IMG/VR virus record: IMGVR_UViG_3300044675_001501
Location: 1 to 64,000 of that record
DNA: 64,000 nt
DNA from: a virus
Lineage: Duplodnaviria > Heunggongvirae > Uroviricota > Caudoviricetes
Direction: 5' to 3' (one strand)
Positions 3,267-17,260 of the stretch are shown here, piece by piece (position 1 is the first letter of the stretch; each line of letters starts with the position of its first letter). The notes under the pieces were generated by a model that was not told the origin of the DNA, searched no databases, and saw only the letters and a program-made list of their open reading frames with translations. The position numbers and the translations under genes are program-made.

Positions 3267-4192
3267 TTTACCATTAGTTCAGTCAACGCTGCCATCATAT
3301 TTATTTCCTGATCAGCTACGAAAGCAGACTTGTACTGATAGTCTGCTAGGGTTACCACTAGCTGAGGGATAGATGATGGATCCATAATCTCAATTGCTTT
3401 GTCATAAAGATTACGGAAAATATGGGCAGTTCCCATATCAGCATTCTTACCAACCCAACGACGAATGTCTGTATACTTCTTCGTCTTTAGTAAATCTACA
3501 AGTTCTTTAAATGATTCATCACTAACATTCAGAAGAATACCAGAATCAATCTTACCTGAAACTGAATAACGCTGAAGTTCATTCAGAGTTCTACGGAAGT
3601 CTGGGAAATGTTTTGTGACGAGTTCAGCTACAACCTTAGAGTCAAACTCTACCTGTTCAGAAGATAGAATGTCAACAATACGCTTATAGAAAGCAGCTGC
3701 GATCTTTGGCTTCTCGCCATTGTCGATTTTAAAATCAACATTAATGCAGCGAGACTGAAGAGCATCAAGAAGACGATGCTTAAAATTACAAGTAAAGATG
3801 AAGCGGCAATTGCCAGCAAACTCTTCAATAAACGCACGCAATGCAGGTTGTACTGAGTCGGCATTCATATAATCAGCCTCATCAATAATAACAACCTTCT
3901 TTGCTTCTGTCAAAGAAACAGTTGAAGCAAAAGATTTAATAACAGTTCGGAGAGTGTCGATAGAACGACCTTCGTCCGAACCGTTAATCATCAAATATTC
4001 TGCGCCAACTTCATCACATAGTGCTTTTGCTACAGTAGTTTTACCAACACCAGCTGTTCCGCTGAAAATAAAATTAGGAAGTTCACCACTAGCGATGAAC
4101 TCCTTAAAAGTTTTCTTCAGAGATTCTGGTAAAATACAATCATCAATTTTCTGCGGACGATACTTCTCAACCCACAAATAGTGTTCACTCAT
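3251..4192 (-). CDS. 44: clamp-loader large subunit gp44 (AAA+ ATPase)
   Basis: Walker A GTAGVGKTT, Walker B VVIIDEAD, and an SRC motif (LQSRCINV). Co-linear with T4 gp44. Confidence 0.9.
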   Translation of the reverse strand: MSEHYLWVEKYRPQKIDDCILPESLKKTFKEFIASGELPNFIFSGTAGVGKTTVAKALCDEVGAEYLMINGSDEGRSIDTLRTVIKSFASTVSLTEAKKVVIIDEADYMNADSVQPALRAFIEEFAGNCRFIFTCNFKHRLLDALQSRCINVDFKIDNGEKPKIAAAFYKRIVDILSSEQVEFDSKVVAELVTKHFPDFRRTLNELQRYSVSGKIDSGILLNVSDESFKELVDLLKTKKYTDIRRWVGKNADMGTAHIFRNLYDKAIEIMDPSSIPQLVVTLADYQYKSAFVADQEINMMAALTELMVNCKFK

Positions 4193-5198: not shown

Positions 5199-5227
5199 AT
5201 TATACCCCAGAAATGGGGTATAGTCAA
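5199..5227 (-). promoter_or_regulatory. sigma70-type early promoter for the gp45-gp44-gp62-regA operon (TTGACT-N17-TATAAT)
   Basis: Minus-strand TTGACTataccccatttctggggTATAAT. The spacer contains the palindrome cccca-uuuc-ugggg. Confidence 0.6.
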
Positions 5228-5228
5228 A

Positions 5229-6032
5229 TTATTTTTGCATCATCAAAGCATTGAAGTTAGCAGGAACAACAATGGTCTGCACTCGACCATTCTTAATACC
5301 CTCAGAGATATTCAACGCAGCTTGAGCTTGCATAAAAGCAATAGAACTGGCAGAGTTATTGGCAAGAGCAGCCATACGCTCAGCTTCCTTCTTAGCAGTT
5401 TGAACCTCTACTTCTTTCTGCTTGTATTCATTCTTAGCACGAACCAAAGCATTAGCAGATTCAACAACACTGTCAGCTGGGACTACGTTACGAATTAAGA
5501 CTTGGCTAATTGTAATTGAACCATCAAGTTTTTCTTCAGCAAGATTCTTTTGAATCTCTTCTTGAATCATACGCTCCATATTCTCACGATTGTCTGCCAT
5601 ATCAAGTGCTTCATATTTACGAGCAGCTTTATAGATGGCATTACGAGCATTCTGAACAACGTAGTTATACATTACGTAGGTGTCACCCTTGAACTCAGCG
5701 TGGAATGCTTTGTTCTTAGTTGAGTAGAGTTCTGCTACAGTTTGTGGATTGATGTTGTAAACAACAACAGCATCTAGATCTTTCATAGTGCTATTATCTT
5801 TTGCTACTGGAGTCATATCCTGAAGGACTACGTTAACATCTTTCACTGGGAATGTCAAAACATCACCAATCATAGTTTGGTTAAAAGATCCAGGCAGCAA
5901 CTCTCCTGGTTTAACCTGCTTATCAAAGCCAACTCGAACACCAACCTCGCCTGTCTCAATACGAGTGCAGCCAGTAGCCAGAGCAACAGTAGCAACCAGA
6001 GCAGAGATTTTCAACATTTGTTTCATGATCAT
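5229..6032 (-). CDS. SPFH/band-7 (prohibitin/HflK-like) lipoprotein
   Basis: Signal peptide with a lipobox (LATGC), then a PHB-like domain and a long Ala/Glu-rich coiled-coil tail (…EYKQKEVEVQTAKKEAERMAALAN…). Confidence 0.65.
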   Translation of the reverse strand: MIMKQMLKISALVATVALATGCTRIETGEVGVRVGFDKQVKPGELLPGSFNQTMIGDVLTFPVKDVNVVLQDMTPVAKDNSTMKDLDAVVVYNINPQTVAELYSTKNKAFHAEFKGDTYVMYNYVVQNARNAIYKAARKYEALDMADNRENMERMIQEEIQKNLAEEKLDGSITISQVLIRNVVPADSVVESANALVRAKNEYKQKEVEVQTAKKEAERMAALANNSASSIAFMQAQAALNISEGIKNGRVQTIVVPANFNALMMQK

Positions 6033-6038
6033 TTTCCT

Positions 6039-6215
6039 TTAAAATAAAACAACAATACCAACCATAACAATTACAACCAAAGCAGAAATACCAAGAGAGT
6101 ATGCTGTAATTTTAGCAAGACTCAATTTTTCTTTGTTAGTCATTTTTCTAAACATGTCTATGCCAGTAAAGAAAATAATAAACAAAGAGATGAAAGCGAG
6201 AACTATCTTAATCAT
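6039..6215 (-). CDS. 58-aa membrane micro-protein (MIKIVLAFISLFIIFFTGIDMFRKMTNKEKLSLAKITAYSLGISALVVIVMVGIVVLF)
   Basis: Below the 60-aa cutoff of the ORF track. Two predicted TM helices. AAGGAAG RBS. Its ATG overlaps the upstream stop (ATGA), and it ends 7 nt before the SPFH gene. Confidence 0.45.
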   Translation of the reverse strand: MIKIVLAFISLFIIFFTGIDMFRKMTNKEKLSLAKITAYSLGISALVVIVMVGIVVLF

Positions 6216-6550
6216 TTTTCTTCCTTAGAATATTTTACATCATGCTCATATAGAAAGTAAAGGCAGCACATTGCATGCGCCAAATGATGAATACCAGATT
6301 CAGGATCTAATTGTTCACCTTCTTTCCACGCCCATAGATGTCTTTGCATAGCATCAAAGTATCTACGCTTAGAATCGGGAACAAATTTCCAGTTGTCTGG
6401 TTCATATTTTTCTGCTCCGAATGTAAGGACTTTAACCATTTCTTTCAGAGCGAGTGGTGGGACTAGCCCATATTGAAGTTTGCCACCATCAAACTTTCTA
6501 CCGCCAGTGGTAGAATTCTGAGATTGTTCAATTTCTTTTTTAGTTGCCAT
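6212..6550 (-). CDS. hypothetical protein (112 aa), possibly a phage dATP/dGTP-pyrophosphohydrolase-like small domain
   Basis: Conserved-looking core (…GGKLQYGLVPPLALKEMVKVLTFGAEKYEPDNWKF…SGIHHLAHAMCCLYFL) recalled from small phage nucleotide-hydrolase-like proteins. The assignment is tentative. Confidence 0.4.
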   Translation of the reverse strand: MATKKEIEQSQNSTTGGRKFDGGKLQYGLVPPLALKEMVKVLTFGAEKYEPDNWKFVPDSKRRYFDAMQRHLWAWKEGEQLDPESGIHHLAHAMCCLYFLYEHDVKYSKEEK

Positions 6551-6573
6551 AGATCCTCCAAGTGAGAATGACT

Positions 6574-6596
6574 ATGGGCACTCTAGGAATGCCCAT
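6574..6596 (-). other. intercistronic hairpin atgggca-N9-tgcccat
   Basis: Perfect 7-bp inverted repeat between ORF86 and ORF112. No U-run follows it. Confidence 0.35.
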
Positions 6597-6607
6597 AAGC
6601 AGGTCAC

Positions 6608-6868
6608 TTACGCAAAGAGACCAAGGCGATACGCAGCTGCTACCATCGCACGAGTAGGCTTACCAATGCGATACTTTACAACTGGCTCACCCTTACTATC
6701 GCTTTTAGAGTTTGCGTAAACGCAATAACCCTGCTCGCGAAGATTGCGAATAGCAGATGCGGGATGGGCGATACCGAACTGACCACGGATTTGTGAAGCA
6801 GTTAGTTCTTTACCATTTTGTAGAACCTGCAAAAGTTTAGATTGACGACTCATAGATTTAATCCTCAT
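6608..6868 (-). CDS. small DNA-binding protein (putative helix-turn-helix)
   Basis: 86 aa, basic, with an HTH-like segment (LTASQIRGQFGIAHPASAIRNLREQGY). Confidence 0.4.
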   Translation of the reverse strand: MRIKSMSRQSKLLQVLQNGKELTASQIRGQFGIAHPASAIRNLREQGYCVYANSKSDSKGEPVVKYRIGKPTRAMVAAAYRLGLFA

Positions 6869-6889
6869 TCAAGTCAATACCATCAAACG

Positions 6890-6929
6890 AAAAAAAGTCA
6901 AGAGTGGTGATGGCATTCCCACTCTTGAC
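6890..6929 (-). terminator. rho-independent terminator (11-bp perfect stem gtcaagagtgg/ccactcttgac followed by U7 on the minus strand)
   Basis: Stem and 11-nt loop seen directly. The A7 run on the plus strand corresponds to a U-run downstream on the minus-strand transcript. Confidence 0.7.
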
Positions 6930-6946
6930 TGTCAAACCAAGTCAGC

Positions 6947-7324
6947 TTAGACTTGGATACCGTTAGCACGAAGTTCTGCGGTAAACTCATCTTCATCGAT
7001 AGACACTGGCTCAGCGTCCTCGATAATTTTCTCGAGCTTCTTCTTAGCAGCAGCAGTTTGCTTAGCTACTGCATCTTTGACTGAACCTGTAGACTTCGGT
7101 CCAGGAAACGCAAAAACTCCACGCGAAATTGTGTTGTTAGCAGACAACCAAAGCGGATAACCAATTTTTGGAGCACCGTCGGTGCGCTTCTCATGAAGAT
7201 CCCAAAAAAGTTTTTGAACTTCTTTGGTCGTAATAGTCTCAGCCGAAGCAAGTTTCGGATTGAGAGAAATAAAAGCATCGATACAACGCTTTTGACCCTT
7301 AGACAAATCAGCATATTTCAGCAT
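6947..7324 (-). CDS. hypothetical protein (125 aa) sharing a motif with the N-terminus of the AAA+ ATPase
   Basis: 'KIGYPLWLSANNTISRGVFAFPGP' resembles 'KFPSWLMTNKVGRGLYAIPGG' of the ORF at 7451..8626. It has its own promoter and terminator. Confidence 0.5.
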   Translation of the reverse strand: MLKYADLSKGQKRCIDAFISLNPKLASAETITTKEVQKLFWDLHEKRTDGAPKIGYPLWLSANNTISRGVFAFPGPKSTGSVKDAVAKQTAAAKKKLEKIIEDAEPVSIDEDEFTAELRANGIQV

Positions 7325-7379
7325 AGTTTAACTCCTGTGTGTGTTAATAAAAAAGAAACTACTCAACTTTACAACTATA

Positions 7380-7408
7380 ATTATACCCCGACTGGGCATA
7401 AATGTCAA
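7380..7408 (-). promoter_or_regulatory. sigma70 consensus early promoter (TTGACA-N17-TATAAT) for ORF125
   Basis: Minus-strand gcTTGACAtttatgcccagtcggggTATAAT. Both hexamers are perfect. Confidence 0.65.
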
Positions 7409-7441
7409 GCATAACCCTACAGTTTGCAAGGTTATTTTCAG

Positions 7442-7464
7442 CCTTTAAAATCAAGGACTTACAG
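7442..7464 (-). repeat. copy 1 of a 23-nt element (minus strand CTGTAAGTCCTTGATTTTAAAGG) at the 3' end of the CobS-like gene
   Basis: Identical 23-mer also present at 11004..11026. This copy spans the TGA stop of the ATPase gene. Confidence 0.6.
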
Positions 7465-8626
7465 CCTCCCCTTCGGCTACAGGGGTTTCCACAGCGGCAG
7501 CTGAGGACTCTTCAACGTAATCGCCTGTCGAAACCTTTTCGAACAAGTCAACAAAGGCAAGGCGAGTAGCGTCATCAAATCGATTCGTGCAAAGTTCAAT
7601 TGCTTTCTTCTGATTCTTGAAGATCGCATAAGCACGAACGATGTGAATTAAACGGCGAGTAGTAATTGTTTCGTCAACACCACCAGCATCAAAAGTACGG
7701 CGAATAGCATCAGCCCACTTGACCATGTTCTCAGCAAACTTCTCATCAAAGCAACCGTAAGAAGTCATGAGATTAGTAACGATCTTCATCTCAGTACGCT
7801 GCTCAGGGTATTCCTGGTTGAAGGTAACAGCGAATCGCTCAAGAAATGCTTCGTTAAGAACATTGGTACCAATGTAACGACCATCTTCGCTACCCTTACC
7901 TTTTGTGTTTGCGGTAGCAAAAATATTGAAACCACGAGCAGGATAGATAAGTTCGTTTTTCAGTTTGAAGTAGAATGGCTTACCTTCAAGAATTGGCTGC
8001 AAGCACATCAGAGTATTTGAGTTACCAGCATCAATCTCATCAAGAAGCAGAGGAATACCAAGACGCATAGCAATAACGATTGGACCTTCAACGATTTCGA
8101 CATTACCATCGATCAAAGTCTTAGTGCCAATCAACTGATCTTCATCAGTCATGCTGTTAAAGTTAATACGAATCAGCGGACGCTTACGCTTTGCGCAAAT
8201 CTGCTCAATGCTGGTAGACTTACCGTTACCAGTTGGACCGCTGATGTAAGAAGGATAAAAGATCTCAGACTTGATAATCTCATCAAGATCTTTATAGTTA
8301 CCGAAGGGGACATAGTTAGGATCAACCTTCGGAATCAAAGATGAAGTGTCGCTATAATTCACAATAACATTCTCATTTTTTTCGGGAGCCAAAGCTGTAT
8401 TGCCAACAACTGGTGCTGTAATATTACCACCAGGAATAGCATACAAACCACGACCAACCTTGTTAGTCATAAGCCAAGAAGGAAACTTGTCAGTTCCGAA
8501 TGAAGTCATAACCTCAATCAATTGAGAGCGAGAAACGACACCCTTAGAAGAAACATCAGGGAACATCTCAAAAAGTTTGGTTTCAAACTCATCACGATAA
8601 GCAGCAGTAGTCATCAAAATCTCCAT
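7451..8626 (-). CDS. cobS: AAA+ ATPase, CobS/MoxR-like
   Basis: Walker A GPTGNGKST and Walker B LLLDEID. The size and context (paired with a vWA protein) resemble the cobS/cobT-like pairs of T4-like phages. Confidence 0.75.
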   Translation of the reverse strand: MEILMTTAAYRDEFETKLFEMFPDVSSKGVVSRSQLIEVMTSFGTDKFPSWLMTNKVGRGLYAIPGGNITAPVVGNTALAPEKNENVIVNYSDTSSLIPKVDPNYVPFGNYKDLDEIIKSEIFYPSYISGPTGNGKSTSIEQICAKRKRPLIRINFNSMTDEDQLIGTKTLIDGNVEIVEGPIVIAMRLGIPLLLDEIDAGNSNTLMCLQPILEGKPFYFKLKNELIYPARGFNIFATANTKGKGSEDGRYIGTNVLNEAFLERFAVTFNQEYPEQRTEMKIVTNLMTSYGCFDEKFAENMVKWADAIRRTFDAGGVDETITTRRLIHIVRAYAIFKNQKKAIELCTNRFDDATRLAFVDLFEKVSTGDYVEESSAAAVETPVAEGEAVSP

Positions 8627-8647
8627 AATAAAATTTACTACAATTAA

Positions 8648-8676
8648 ATTATACTAGCATTGGCAATTAATGTCAA
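8648..8676 (-). promoter_or_regulatory. sigma70 consensus early promoter (TTGACA-N17-TATAAT) for the AAA+ ATPase gene
   Basis: Minus-strand gcTTGACAttaattgccaatgctagTATAAT. Its extended -35 flank resembles the promoter at 7380..7408. Confidence 0.65.
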
Positions 8677-8690
8677 GCAAAATGCAAACT

Positions 8691-10943
8691 TTATGCAACC
8701 AGCCCAACAAAGCGATTCAGAAGGATCCGATTTGTCTTCTGAACATTCAGATACTTGTTGAACGCTTTTGCAATTTGCTTGCTATTCATCTTGTCAGAAA
8801 CTTCCAAGTCTTCATCTTTAATTGCAAGTTTAGACGAAGGGATAATATACAGTTCATCACGACCACAGTTTGTAAGCATAGCGAAGTCATTCTTACGAAT
8901 TTCTTTTTGCATTGCTTCAACCGTAGCCATATCCTCAATAGAACCACCCTTAGCAGAAGTAACATTGTTACGAACAAACCAAGTTAGATCACGGCGAGAA
9001 TTTCTACCGATGTAGAAACCAACAGTAGTAGCGTTATATCGATCTTTGATAATCTGCAGGAACACATTAGTTTGTGTGCTAGATTCCTGAGTGATACGAT
9101 ATTCTTTCTTAGTAATTGGATCAACCAAGTAGTTAAGAACTTTACAACGCTTGTACTCTGGCTCATATACGGTAACGTATTCACGAAGAGACTTGTGATG
9201 ATTACCGTGAAGAGTTCCACCCTCGCCATCAGTCAAAGTAATAAATGTCAGTTTCTCGACATTGTTCTTTGACTTAAACTCAGCAAGATGGTTAGTCATA
9301 AACAGCAACGCTTCATTAAGCGGAGTGCTATTAAGAGTCAATCTAGAACTATAATAATAGAAATTAGAAAGACACATCTGAACCATCTTAGTAAATTCAC
9401 TGTTAGTCATTTTATCAGTGAACAACTCAAGAAGGTAAACATCGGCATTGGTAAAACCGTTGAACGATACATCAGTCTCATCAGGAACTCTGGTATAAGG
9501 ATCTTCTGGGTACAGAATATCACCACGTTCGTTTCTAGGATAACGATCGAAACCATTGCTAAATGCGTAGACACGGAAAGGAATCTGTGCACGCTGGCAG
9601 AACATAACCAGAGTAATAGTTTGCTTCAGCGTATCATGAATGTTATCATACATTGAACCAGACCAGTCAAGCAACATAACCATACCGTGATTCTTTGTAT
9701 CTTTAGTAACAGAGATACGCTTAAAGATGTCATCGGTCAACTGATACATCGCCAGTTTGTTTACGTTCAAATTACCAGTCTTAGAAATTTTACTACGACG
9801 ATAAGCAGTAGCTGACTTACGCATTTCAAATTCTTTGACTAGATAATTGACGATACGGCTACTTTCAGACTTGAATTGTTGAGCAGCTGTGGTCATTCTA
9901 TTAGCAGCTTCTGCTCGCTCCTTATTTCTGTCTGCGTCTGTCAAATAACGATTTGCGAAGTGACGATCGAAGTCTTCATCAAAAACTTTGAAGATTTCTT
10001 TATAAGGTACAACCTGATTGACGTCACGCAAATTGGCAGTCTTAGGTTCCCAACGCTGAACAATAGTATTCGTATCTGCTAGGTCTTGAAGGCGAACACG
10101 CAGGGCACGTTCTGTTTGCGACTCCATTTCAGTGGTAGTCGGTAAGGTAGAAGTATTCTGTGTGTTATCACCAGCAACAAAACGCTTGTTAGAACTGTCA
10201 GACTGTTCTTCATGTTCTGTTTCAGTATAGGGATCATACTCGCCGTCAAAGAAGATTTCATCTTCATCTTCATCTTCATCAACATCACCGAACTCAATTT
10301 CGGTATCGTAATTCATTTGCTCTTCGATATCATCGAGATCTTCTTGAGTGAGTTCTTTGTTGGAGTTGAGTTCTTCCTTACGCTTTTTCAATTCCTCATA
10401 AGAAAAGTTGTAAACTTCAAGAGCAAGATTCTGCACGTCTTTGATAGTGTCGCACTTGTCAACTCGGCGAACAAGTTCCATTTCTTGCGGTGTAAACTTA
10501 ACACCAGAGTTGATGCCAACTTTGTAATAGATGTTGATGCGGTCAATCAGCAAAAGTTTGCTGAGGTCTTTGTCTTTAACTTCAAAGAAGTCTTTGTCGT
10601 TGAGGTATTTGTATCCAGCAATAAAGCATTTACGCAAGCCAGGATACTTGTTCTTCATCATTTTTTCAATGCGAACATCTTCAATCACATTAAGATAACT
10701 GTGCATCTTGTGGTAGTTTTCTGTTTGAAGGTATTCTTGAGAAGTGAACAAAGCATGCCCAACCTCATGGGAAATGAGCATGTCCTCCACATCTTCGTTC
10801 ATTTCTTTCCAAAGAGGGAGGACTAGTGTACGACTGGTGATATCAAATGAAGCAGTAGTCGTTCTTGCGCGAACCACGTTCAGGTTCTCGGCTGCAAGAA
10901 GGCGAGCAAGCATGTCCTTACTATTCATAATGTAGGTCTCCAA
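8691..10943 (-). CDS. cobT: vWA-domain protein (CobT-like) with an N-terminal HExxH metallopeptidase-like motif and an acidic linker
   Basis: HEVGH with a downstream Glu (…NVIEDVRIE). A poly-acidic stretch DEDEDEDE. A vWA MIDAS motif VMLLDWSGSM. 750 aa. Confidence 0.7.
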   Translation of the reverse strand: METYIMNSKDMLARLLAAENLNVVRARTTTASFDITSRTLVLPLWKEMNEDVEDMLISHEVGHALFTSQEYLQTENYHKMHSYLNVIEDVRIEKMMKNKYPGLRKCFIAGYKYLNDKDFFEVKDKDLSKLLLIDRINIYYKVGINSGVKFTPQEMELVRRVDKCDTIKDVQNLALEVYNFSYEELKKRKEELNSNKELTQEDLDDIEEQMNYDTEIEFGDVDEDEDEDEIFFDGEYDPYTETEHEEQSDSSNKRFVAGDNTQNTSTLPTTTEMESQTERALRVRLQDLADTNTIVQRWEPKTANLRDVNQVVPYKEIFKVFDEDFDRHFANRYLTDADRNKERAEAANRMTTAAQQFKSESSRIVNYLVKEFEMRKSATAYRRSKISKTGNLNVNKLAMYQLTDDIFKRISVTKDTKNHGMVMLLDWSGSMYDNIHDTLKQTITLVMFCQRAQIPFRVYAFSNGFDRYPRNERGDILYPEDPYTRVPDETDVSFNGFTNADVYLLELFTDKMTNSEFTKMVQMCLSNFYYYSSRLTLNSTPLNEALLFMTNHLAEFKSKNNVEKLTFITLTDGEGGTLHGNHHKSLREYVTVYEPEYKRCKVLNYLVDPITKKEYRITQESSTQTNVFLQIIKDRYNATTVGFYIGRNSRRDLTWFVRNNVTSAKGGSIEDMATVEAMQKEIRKNDFAMLTNCGRDELYIIPSSKLAIKDEDLEVSDKMNSKQIAKAFNKYLNVQKTNRILLNRFVGLVA

Positions 10944-10959
10944 GTTTATTACAGTTAGA

Positions 10960-10988
10960 ATTATGCCCTATTTATGAATTAAAAGCAA
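10960..10988 (-). promoter_or_regulatory. sigma70-like promoter (TTGCTT-N17-CATAAT) for the vWA gene
   Basis: Minus-strand cTTGCTTttaattcataaatagggCATAAT with a 17-nt spacer. Confidence 0.45.
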
Positions 10989-11003
10989 GTCTTGCATATT
11001 TGT

Positions 11004-11026
11004 CCTTTAAAATCAAGGACTTACAG
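11004..11026 (-). repeat. copy 2 of the 23-nt element, 4 nt after the gp46 stop
   Basis: Exact match to 7442..7464. Confidence 0.6.
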
Positions 11027-11030
11027 AGGG

Positions 11031-12749
11031 TTATGGTGCTGACATGACTGAAAAATCGTTCTTCTTTTCGAACTTTACCACACTATGAAACTTGTCAAAT
11101 AGTTGGTCGCCCTTGTGAGAAATTACAAAAACATTAGTCTTTTCGCCCAACTGATTCATCACACTCAAGAAATAGTCAGTTCCTGCTGTGTCTAGAGATG
11201 AATCAAAGATCTCATCCAAGATAAGTAGGTTAGTGTTAACTGAGTTCTTCATCTTCGCAATCTGTCGCCAAGTAAACAAGATAGCCAAGTCAATACGCAT
11301 CTTCTCACCTTCTGAGAAACTCGCATAGGTAAACTCATCACGGAATCTAGACTTAATAGTTTCGTTGAATGATTCATCTAATTCAAAGTGAACATAGAAG
11401 TCCATAGCCTGTAGATACATGTTAATTAACTTGTTCATAGCAGGTAGATATTCTTTGATCACCGCAGTCTTAATTCCAGTGTCCTTTAGTAAGGTAGCTG
11501 AGATTTCTTGAATAGTTCTTTCTTCGCTTAGGACTGTCTTTCTGTCCAGGAACTGCATAGCAGCTTTCGCTAACTCCTTCAACTTAACTTTTTCAGCATC
11601 AATACTTTCAGTGTTAGACTTTGTGTTTTCTATTTCCTGAAGGAGTTTAGTGTTCTGAGAGTTTAGAGTTGAGATTGTGCTATTCATAGTTGAGATTTCA
11701 ATGTTTAACTCAGAGATCTCAGTAACTATGTCATCTATTTGCTTCAATCTAGTTCCTAGATCTTCTAGTCTAGTTTTGATACTATCTTTCTCTGTCTGAT
11801 TAATCTCAAGATCAGCAGTTAAAGTAGTCGCAATCTTTTCAGCATGGGAATGTGGGATGTTCTGATCGCAAGATGGGCACTGGTCGTTTGACGAAAAGAA
11901 TCTAACTCTTTCGTTTAGATCAGAAACTTTTTGATTAATCTTTACCAAAGTTTCTTTAAATGAGGCAATCCCCTCAGTAACAGCTTGCTTATCTGCTATA
12001 TCCTCTCGTAATTCCTTAACTCGATTAGATAGTTCCGTAAGAGTTGTTGTTGTGGTATGAATCTCAGCTTCGTTTGATTGAATTCTTGTTCTAATAGAAT
12101 CAAGGTGCTCTTTCTTTGAAGTAACGAGGCTAGAGATGATCTTCTGTTGAGACTCCACTGCTGACTTTGAAATTTGTAGCTGCGATTCGACATTAGCCAA
12201 TTCCTCTTTGGTTGCTTGTACTTTTTCTTTTAAGAGTTGATTCATCGTAGAGAAAATCTTAATGTCTAAGATATCTTCAATAACTTCTCTACGCTGACCA
12301 GAAGGTAACTGCATAAATGGAACAAATGATGCGCTACCCAGAATAACAACCTGAGTAAATGTCTTATAGTTTAGTTTTAAGATTTGTTGCTCTAGAATCT
12401 TTTGGTAATCCTTAGAGGCAGCATCTTGATTGATTAGATTGTCGTTGTGATAGATCTCAAACAAGTTTGGTTTGATACCACGCTTGATAACATAGTTGTT
12501 TGAGGCAATAGAAAATTCTACTACAACCAAACACTGCTTTTGATTGATGCTGTTGACTAGCTGCCCTTTGTTAATGTTTCTAAATGGTTTTCCGAATAGA
12601 GCAAAACAAAGAGCATCTAGAATAGTCGATTTACCGTCACCATTCTTACCAACAATCAATGTTGACTGCGAACGATTAAGTAAAACTTTATTTGGGGAAT
12701 TGCCTGTTGATAAAAAGTTTTTCCATTCTATAGATTTAAATACGATCAT
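11031..12749 (-). CDS. 46: recombination endonuclease subunit gp46 (SbcC/Rad50-like ATPase)
   Basis: N-terminal Walker A GKNGDGKST, long coiled-coil middle, a CPSC zinc-hook-like motif, and C-terminal signature and D-loop (LLILDEIFDS). Confidence 0.85.
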   Translation of the reverse strand: MIVFKSIEWKNFLSTGNSPNKVLLNRSQSTLIVGKNGDGKSTILDALCFALFGKPFRNINKGQLVNSINQKQCLVVVEFSIASNNYVIKRGIKPNLFEIYHNDNLINQDAASKDYQKILEQQILKLNYKTFTQVVILGSASFVPFMQLPSGQRREVIEDILDIKIFSTMNQLLKEKVQATKEELANVESQLQISKSAVESQQKIISSLVTSKKEHLDSIRTRIQSNEAEIHTTTTTLTELSNRVKELREDIADKQAVTEGIASFKETLVKINQKVSDLNERVRFFSSNDQCPSCDQNIPHSHAEKIATTLTADLEINQTEKDSIKTRLEDLGTRLKQIDDIVTEISELNIEISTMNSTISTLNSQNTKLLQEIENTKSNTESIDAEKVKLKELAKAAMQFLDRKTVLSEERTIQEISATLLKDTGIKTAVIKEYLPAMNKLINMYLQAMDFYVHFELDESFNETIKSRFRDEFTYASFSEGEKMRIDLAILFTWRQIAKMKNSVNTNLLILDEIFDSSLDTAGTDYFLSVMNQLGEKTNVFVISHKGDQLFDKFHSVVKFEKKNDFSVMSAP

Positions 12750-14740: not shown

Positions 14741-14812
14741 ATATTTTTCTTTGCAAACTTTGCTTTTCGCTTGACATAAGAACATAATTACGGTGTAGGG
14801 GTTGATAGATAC

Positions 14813-17249: not shown

Positions 17250-17260
17250 AAAATGTCAAA

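Follow-up and report, generated by a model that had tools for sequence, protein, structure and literature searches.

An identical 23-nt element at two gene ends

What is the role of a short sequence that recurs letter for letter at the ends of two genes, each time ahead of an early promoter? The question is raised by the 64,000-nt stretch analysed here (hereafter the window; positions 1 to 64,000 of IMG/VR record IMGVR_UViG_3300044675_001501), which, judging by its sequence, belongs to an uncultured T4-like myovirus and carries the 23-nt element CTGTAAGTCCTTGATTTTAAAGG twice. We think it probable that each copy is a high-affinity duplex-DNA site for host integration host factor (IHF), or for a protein of nearly the same function, and we hold any regulatory effect of the site with less confidence than its identity. 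The initial annotation had suggested a protein- or RNase-recognition site. Protein recognition stood as the best reading, whilst the RNA side of that suggestion did not, recognition being placed on double-stranded DNA.

An exact-match search confirmed both copies, at 7442-7464 (copy 1) and 11004-11026 (copy 2), each on the minus strand with 0 mismatches. The genome-wide search for further copies proposed in the initial annotation, run here on the window, returned these two only, and no third copy was present in the window with three or fewer mismatches. Two or more matches to the 23-mer occurred in 0/100 dinucleotide-preserving shuffles of the window. In a k-mer census the element was the sole non-coding exact repeat of at least 16 nt, paralogous coding repeats, one 16-nt coincidence and one palindrome aside. 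The repeat is real and non-random; it probably represents a new example of a familiar kind of site and does not overturn current understanding.

Copy 1 overlaps the end of a cobS-like ATPase gene (ORF 7451-8626, minus strand), as described in the initial annotation, with the TGA stop codon at 7451-7453 corresponding to element positions 12-14. Positions 1-14 of this copy are coding, leaving TTTTAAAGG as the non-coding half, and its core TAAGTCCTTGATT (7449-7461) overlaps the last four codons and the TGA. Copy 2, with its core at 11011-11023, does lie 4 nt past the gp46 TAA (spacer ccct; gp46 open reading frame (ORF) 11031-12749, minus strand). The next promoter had been placed about 30-40 nt downstream of each copy, which held for copy 1, where the -35 hexamer starts at 33 nt, but not for copy 2, where the -35 hexamer TTGCTT starts 15 nt and the -10 hexamer CATAAT 38 nt past the element. 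The two intergenic regions have nothing in common beyond the 23-mer: the promoters differ and a hairpin beside copy 1 is not shared. Immediately downstream, the copies are followed by ctgaaaat and acaaatat, respectively, which are A/T-rich but do not form a T tract.

The core of the element matches the IHF consensus

In both copies the opposite strand of the core reads AATCAAGGACTTA, which agrees with the IHF consensus WATCAANNNNTTR at every position; expressed as the complement of that consensus, YAANNNNTTGATW, the pattern is likewise matched fully by both window cores. As a positive control, the YAANNNNTTGATW pattern was applied to phage lambda attP, where it found exactly three places, namely the classical sites H1, H2 and H'. 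The window core is identical to lambda H1 (TAAGTAGTTGATT) at 11/13 positions.

Conservation among related sites elsewhere, described below, follows the IHF profile, with TAA and TTGAT near-invariant and the four N positions conserved at 53-85 %. Four consensus elements are recognised for IHF; one of them is an A-tract, which some IHF sites possess (PMC1874591). The corresponding position is T-rich in 47-62 of 94 family members, and the lambda H' geometry TTGATA-agcaatgc-TTTTTT has the same 8-nt spacing as the T6 tract of the family. A tblastn search with E. coli HupA, IhfA and IhfB sequences as queries found no phage-encoded HU/IHF homologue in the window or the viral loci, and all-against-all blastp found no protein common to the neighbourhoods of unrelated loci, which together point to a host factor. 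From the sequence evidence, a Proteobacteria-wide factor with this asymmetric consensus, sited at attachment (att) arms, iterons and promoter-upstream regions, would most simply be IHF. We know of no other factor with this asymmetric consensus, and by-eye comparison with consensuses for LexA, CtrA, sigma-54, Fis, dif, Ter and T7-like single-subunit RNA polymerase promoters gave no fit.

Related sites in viruses and bacteria

The exact 23-mer was found in 11 IMG/VR contigs, of which just one (L004) is related to the window; the others represent six unrelated lineages of 35-54 % G+C with unlike flanks. It had no match in the genomes of 185,579 species and so is not a host gene fragment. Shorter seeds recovered a far larger family. 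The right 17-mer, GTCCTTGATTTTAAAGG, was present in 101 IMG/VR stretches; for the left 17-mer the number was 108. Flanks were mostly unrelated, and these counts are far above chance on our own rough estimate of the collection size. Outside the seed, positions 4-6 of the right-seed matches were T, A and A in 79, 90 and 90 of 94, respectively. A further 93 secondary copies containing neither search seed displayed the same pattern, with frequencies of 0.90, 0.97 and 0.97 for TAA, 0.78, 0.85, 0.80 and 0.53 for GTCC, and 0.95, 0.99, 0.98, 0.96, 0.96 and 0.89 for TTGATT, followed by an A/T-rich stretch and then GG at about 0.75; positions 1-3 were nearly free. The T-rich positions noted above are bases +2 to +7 of the right-seed members, placing a T6 tract 8 nt past TTGATW in many of them. 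At the other end of the motif, CTG was the commonest prefix of all (9/73 flank-clusters versus 2.1 expected), and the full CTGTAA prefix was about fourfold over the expectation for independent positions.

By a crude gene call, around three-quarters of the family sites are intergenic. In several contigs the exact 23-mer sits among contig-specific iterons, for example in L011, where a 1.3-kb non-coding region also contains an AT-rich run and two degenerate extra copies, and other family members are found among iterons, DnaA boxes and AT-rich runs. Around the window copies, no GC-skew turn indicative of a replication origin was present near 7-11 kb and iterons were not noticed on reading. Promoter-like hexamers (TTGAC[AT]) within 60 nt of a site read away from it in 25 and 18 of 170 cases on the two sides and towards it in 6 and 7 of 170, about threefold more rarely. 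Several unrelated contigs (L012, L014/L027, L057 and L013/L046) carry a full TTGAC[AT]-N16-18 promoter whose -35 starts 10-20 nt past the element, as at copy 2.

Some viral members are arranged differently. Tandem copies spaced about 34 nt apart were seen in L019 (1360-1410 and 3089-3140), L015 (minus strand), L048 (10754-10800) and L055 (375-425), in viral contigs of up to 112 kb; CTTTTTT comes after every copy, and often there is a GC-rich palindrome ahead of it. A GC-rich palindrome immediately precedes the motif in several viral family members, and directly ahead of it in L021 is a palindrome resembling parS, TGTTCCACGTGGAACA (about 3600-3626).

In bacteria, the 20-mer TAAGTCCTTGATTTTAAAGG was present in 28 genome stretches, compared with about one expected for a random 20-mer in 596 Gb. 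Twenty-one of these are from Pseudomonadota (alpha, beta and gamma), two from former delta-proteobacteria, and the remaining five are metagenome-assembled genome contigs (1.6-79 kb), which could be mis-binned. The flanks of L202 and L205 are shared with the viral contig L056, and L205 is binned as Saccharibacteria. ARAGORN placed a tRNA gene 1-6 nt from the 20-mer in 3/28 stretches, in differing relative orientations: tRNA-Gln in L207 (20-mer at 2802-2821), tRNA-Leu in L209 (1290-1309) and tRNA-Ser in L223 (1239-1258). These are probably junctions or arms of elements integrated at tRNA genes. An attP core or tRNA fragment was rejected as the identity of the element itself, on the absence of the 23-mer from the species genomes and because the tRNA genes lie beside the motif and never overlap it.

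Matches in cultured phages were mainly to those of Vibrio, Escherichia, Burkholderia, Klebsiella, Erwinia and Ralstonia, mostly at no annotated feature, with some weak matches in Streptococcus and Cellulophaga phages. In Ralstonia phage RS-PII-1 the motif lies 170 nt upstream of a recombinase gene. A match in phage Melnitz was set aside as probable chance, falling within a coding sequence at 88 % identity over 26 nt. A string search of the literature for the motif returned only unrelated human PCR primers.

Conservation of copy 1 and origin of copy 2

Copy 1 is at the same place in three relatives (alignment A1), with 23/23 identity in L004, two changes in L227 and five in L231. The L004 copy is identical although the ATPase proteins are only about 88 % identical. 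GTAAGT..TTGATTT is invariant in all four aligned sequences, whilst the surrounding non-coding sequence diverges. The L227 copy reads CCGTAAGTGCTTGATTTTAAAGG followed by gtttttt, and the L231 copy GCGTAAGTTATTGATTTATAATGG followed by ttttt; both have changes at N and flank positions only.

Copy 2 has a different history. It is missing from four relatives (L228-L231), where alignment A2 shows a clean 23-column gap coextensive with the repeat, and an independent BLAST of the flanks found them abutting in the same four sequences with a gap of 0-3 nt. Protein identities for the adjacent phrog_459 gene (window/L230 85.7 %, window/L231 77.8 %, L230/L231 77.2 %) make L231 the outgroup to the window and L230, and both L230 and L231 are without copy 2. 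Most parsimoniously, 23 bp were inserted only in the window's lineage, giving copy 2 the same sequence as copy 1 of that lineage. No matching bases were seen at its junctions on reading the aligned flanks. The adjacent promoter (TTGCYT...TAGGGCATAATT) is kept in 5/5 sequences, so the insertion added a consensus site, centred at about -62, to a promoter that already existed. A clean gain of 23 bp means that a regulatory site could be added to a promoter in one step. A search for further relatives by promoter DNA pattern returned just two contigs already known, and no empty sites in other lineages were present among the loci, as expected given that the loci had been fetched by motif.

The only odd feature is the combination of this precise 23-bp copy event with a near-identical 20-mer common to many unrelated phages. 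One could propose that the 20-23-bp site is a portable architectural plug-in, which short-patch insertion would copy with exact ends, both inside a phage genome and from one genome to another. Room for this is left by the coincidence of the copy 2 ends with the repeat ends at junctions free of matching bases, and by the identical 23-mer in six unrelated viral lineages together with the excess of the CTGTAA prefix; we regard it as rather unlikely.

A putative IHF site upstream of early promoters

If the element is an IHF site, the recognition element would comprise the core TAAGTCCTTGATT (reverse strand AATCAAGGACTTA) and the adjacent A/T-rich TTTAAA. On binding, IHF would introduce a sharp bend a short way ahead of each sigma-70-type early promoter, with the sites centred at about -80 (copy 1) and about -62 (copy 2) relative to the inferred starts. 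Such a bend would influence transcription initiation of the early unit that follows, most probably stimulating it. Both the binding and the promoter effect, including its direction, are what we infer from the arrangement.

Comparable arrangements are known from temperate phages. IHF reportedly affects lambda pL, to go by the title of Giladi et al. 1992 (cited in PMC1874639). In phage Mu, a host IHF site influences the early promoter Pe (PMC3820752). The window sites resemble these, by sequence only, in having an IHF-type site some tens of bases ahead of a sigma-70 early promoter. They differ in that Mu and lambda are both temperate with characterised repressor circuits, whereas the window sites, at about -62 and -80, are found at only two of approximately nine early promoters in the window. 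The likeness to lambda attP is one of sequence and geometry, in the asymmetric core YAANNNNTTGATW and, in the wider family, the T6 tract 8 nt past TTGATW as in H'; the motifs directly beside tRNA genes in bacterial genomes also recall the arms of integrated elements. The window itself, in contrast, is a lytic-type T4-like myovirus region without integrase or att context, and its sites, with IHF binding predicted from sequence, lie upstream of early promoters without an A-tract. A chromosomal parallel is offered by the RIP/RIB elements of E. coli, in which IHF sites are embedded in the extragenic palindromes known as REP/BIME and the function of RIP is unclear. Shared with these are extragenic IHF-type sites at the 3' ends of transcription units beside palindromic hairpins, whereas the window has no REP sequence and is phage rather than chromosome.

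Were IHF to bind, a lytic T4-like phage of an aquatic proteobacterium would couple some of its early transcription to a nucleoid protein of the host. IHF levels change with growth phase, and infection timing would thus be linked to host physiology. The near-invariant 20-mer would also help annotation, as it flags hundreds of uncultured phage contigs for a candidate IHF site, be it at a putative origin, in an att arm or upstream of a promoter; it may further hint at a proteobacterial host.

Several observations weigh against an IHF site. The window copies lack the T6 tract found in most family members, their distances to the -35 differ (15 versus 33 nt) with no single fixed activation geometry evident, and strong early promoters at 17259, 8676 and 5227 have no site. 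The IHF core is not enriched in the window (5 found versus 6.25 expected). GTCC, AAAGG and the CTG prefix, all outside the IHF consensus, are conserved beyond the known need of E. coli IHF, and E. coli genomes hardly contain the extended motif (only three weak matches in 5,426). The factor may be another, related one, or the sites may have a common descent. We also know of no role of IHF in T4-type phages.

Alternative explanations

The explanation that survives best beside IHF is a different sequence-specific DNA-binding protein, either a proteobacterial factor or a phage regulator, whose site includes the IHF core. It would account for the conservation of GTCC (53-85 %), of the terminal GG (about 75 %) and of the CTG prefix (about fourfold over expectation), for the near absence of the extended motif from E. 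coli genomes, and for the tandem copies at about 34-nt spacing in L019, L015, L048 and L055, an arrangement unusual for IHF. Such a protein should nonetheless be reconciled with the absence of any common protein from the neighbourhoods of unrelated loci, with the spread of the motif over alpha, beta, gamma and former delta proteobacteria, and with the positions at tRNA-gene junctions, in iteron regions and with an A-tract at H' spacing, all of which IHF predicts; nor, as stated above, do we know of another factor with this asymmetric consensus. We regard this explanation as a minor but genuine possibility.

An element acting in the transcript (a hairpin that stabilises the 3' end, a site for an RNase or for processing, or a terminator of non-canonical type) would fit the sense orientation of both window copies at gene 3' ends and the T-run that follows many family members. 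The weak internal palindrome and the lack of a U-run were borne out: the stem is 4 bp in copy 1 and up to 6 bp in copy 2 (GUCCUU/AAGGAC), and a folding energy of -1.9 kcal/mol (z = -0.29) was predicted for the isolated element. Folding of the two copies within their context (101 nt) was no better than that of shuffles (z = -1.0 and +0.5), and Rfam covariance models gave no match with E <= 1 in 6000-12500. Among family sites a frequent change of C10 to A leaves G22 as G, so that the hairpin shows no compensation. With shuffle-like energies, no Rfam match and no covariation, an RNA structure for the 23-mer was rejected. As the initial annotation had held, the 23-mer is not an intrinsic terminator: its 4-6 bp stem is A/U-rich rather than G+C-rich, there is no U-run, and it is not among the calls of a terminator scan.

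Orientation provided a further line of evidence. Across more than 200 related sites, orientation relative to the flanking genes was mixed; the counts were 37 for opposite/opposite, 30 for same/same, 27 for same/opposite and 13 for opposite/same, and for sites bearing a T-run the upstream gene was in the same sense in 26 and the opposite sense in 40. This mixture, T-run-bearing sites included, indicates that the T-run is not a terminator tail and, together with the uncompensated hairpin, that the element is read as duplex DNA and not as RNA. The processing or 3'-end stabilising role that had been suggested for the 23-mer was not upheld on these grounds and on the conservation of IHF-consensus positions, and 3'-end formation at copy 1 can be accounted for by the covarying hairpin next to it (see below). 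We consider a transcript-level element improbable.

Recombination was the remaining suggestion of the initial annotation, in the form of a hotspot or module boundary. The copies would then be substrates resembling the promoter early stem-loop (PeSL) cassettes of T4-type phages, mobilising the 3.56-kb module of peptidase-like and cobS-like genes. Here direct repeats do flank a two-gene auxiliary module in a T4-like genome, each by an early promoter, and for T4-type phages both mini-circles and shuffling by way of PeSLs are on record (PMC2839356, PMC4122927). Further likenesses are the combination of an intergenic stem-loop with a strong sigma-70 promoter (hairpin 7411-7435 and promoter 7408-7380; layout as in PMC4122927) and the presence of repeated sequences at gene boundaries (PMC2839356, PMC4122927). 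The repeated unit in the window is, however, a 23-bp protein-site-like element upstream of the promoter and stem-loop, present in two copies only. Identity is limited to those 23 bp, the promoters differ (TTGACA/TATAAT versus TTGCTT/CATAAT), the hairpin is at one copy only, the element is missing from other early promoters of the window, and 23-mer copies do not delimit any indel between relatives. Above all, the 3.56-kb segment between the copies is syntenic, with the same gene order and place, in the four relatives without copy 2, so the repeats did not deliver the module. A mobile cassette bounded by direct repeats was rejected for the same reason, and we judge recombination substrates to be quite improbable. 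The processing, terminator, attP and PeSL-recombination readings are thus not supported.

It is very improbable that copy 1 is constrained mainly as coding sequence and copy 2 is a neutral, templated duplication without function: positions 1-14 of copy 1 are indeed coding and copy 2 is young and absent from relatives, but the non-coding half TTTTAAAGG is also kept in L004 and L227, the 20-mer recurs in more than 100 unrelated intergenic contexts, and a neutral insertion exactly equal to a consensus site by a promoter is unlikely.

Gene context and neighbouring features

The minus-strand order around the putative IHF sites is a gp47-like nuclease gene, a 107-aa ORF, gp46, copy 2, promoter 10988-10960, the phrog_459 gene, promoter 8676-8648, the cobS-like ATPase gene with copy 1 at its end, hairpin 7411-7435, promoter 7408-7380 and a 125-aa gene. 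The gp46-like protein (11031-12749, minus strand) is an SbcC/Rad50-family recombination nuclease subunit with SMC_N and AAA_23 matches, and shares about 50 % identity with the gp46 proteins found in Methylophilales phage Melnitz and in cyanomyoviruses. The phrog_459 protein (8691-10928, minus strand), annotated as 'peptidase', has 745 aa (also given as 746 aa) from the ATG start giving MNSKD. The ATPase (7451-8626, minus strand) matches AAA_5/CbbQ_C and phrog_249 ('porphyrin biosynthesis'). Within its gene, at 7860-7875, lies a perfect 16-nt palindrome, ACATTGGTACCAATGT.

The promoter downstream of copy 1 (7380-7408, minus strand) is a sigma-70-type early promoter, TTGACA-N17-TATAAT, scoring 12/12 and serving the 125-aa gene (6947-7324, minus strand); its -35 (CTTGAC/CTTGCC) and GGGTATAAT -10 are kept in four relatives. 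The promoter downstream of copy 2 (10960-10988, minus strand), read from the sequence as sigma-70-type TTGCTT-N17-CATAAT, serves the phrog_459 gene. A consensus promoter at 8676-8648 (minus strand) lies upstream of the cobS-like ATPase gene.

A 10-bp hairpin, ATAACCTTGC-aaact-GTAGGGTTAT (7411-7435, minus strand), is predicted by folding between copy 1 and the promoter next to it. Its 10 pairs are 100 % paired in four relatives, with two pairs changed on both sides and two with single changes that keep pairing (G-U) on the sense strand only, and no U-run follows it. The hairpin is likely a transcript 3'-end structure and fits better than the 23-mer as a candidate 3'-end element; it could serve to stabilise mRNA 3' ends or form one half of a PeSL-like unit of stem-loop plus promoter.

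Other features recur at the early promoters. A TTGCAA / AAGTTTGCA motif is found 5-25 nt upstream of the -35 in several of them (about 14750-14770, 8685-8700, 7420-7430 and 10990-11000 in the window) and is repeated two to four times in the spacer between gp46 and the phrog_459 gene in L228-L231; it may be a regulator site or an UP-like element. Promoters 7380-7408, 5199-5227 and 10960-10988 have a G-run directly before the -10 (GGGGTATAAT, AGGGCATAAT), and in two of the three the spacer and -10 are palindromic, e.g. ATACCCCATTTCTGGGGTAT.

Further along the minus strand, the relative L004 lacks an SPFH/Band 7 gene (5229-6032 in the window) and a 58-aa ORF (6039-6215 in the window); there, at L004 2752-2792, the gp45 clamp gene follows about 40 nt after the dGTPase-like gene. 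This indel adjoins early promoter 5227-5199. The gene at 6212-6550 (minus strand) has a strong match to PF18909 and phrog_801, of the dATP/dGTP diphosphohydrolase family (MazZ-like), which is tied to nucleotide-pool remodelling in phages with modified bases. Elsewhere in the window (25.9-26.3 kb and 56.7-58.9 kb; 31.6-32.7 kb and 46.3-47.7 kb), many diverged repeat units of 111-122 nt occur in putative structural genes, and two paralogous segments about 15 kb apart display 75-83 % identity over about 100 nt, with exact runs of up to 28 nt.

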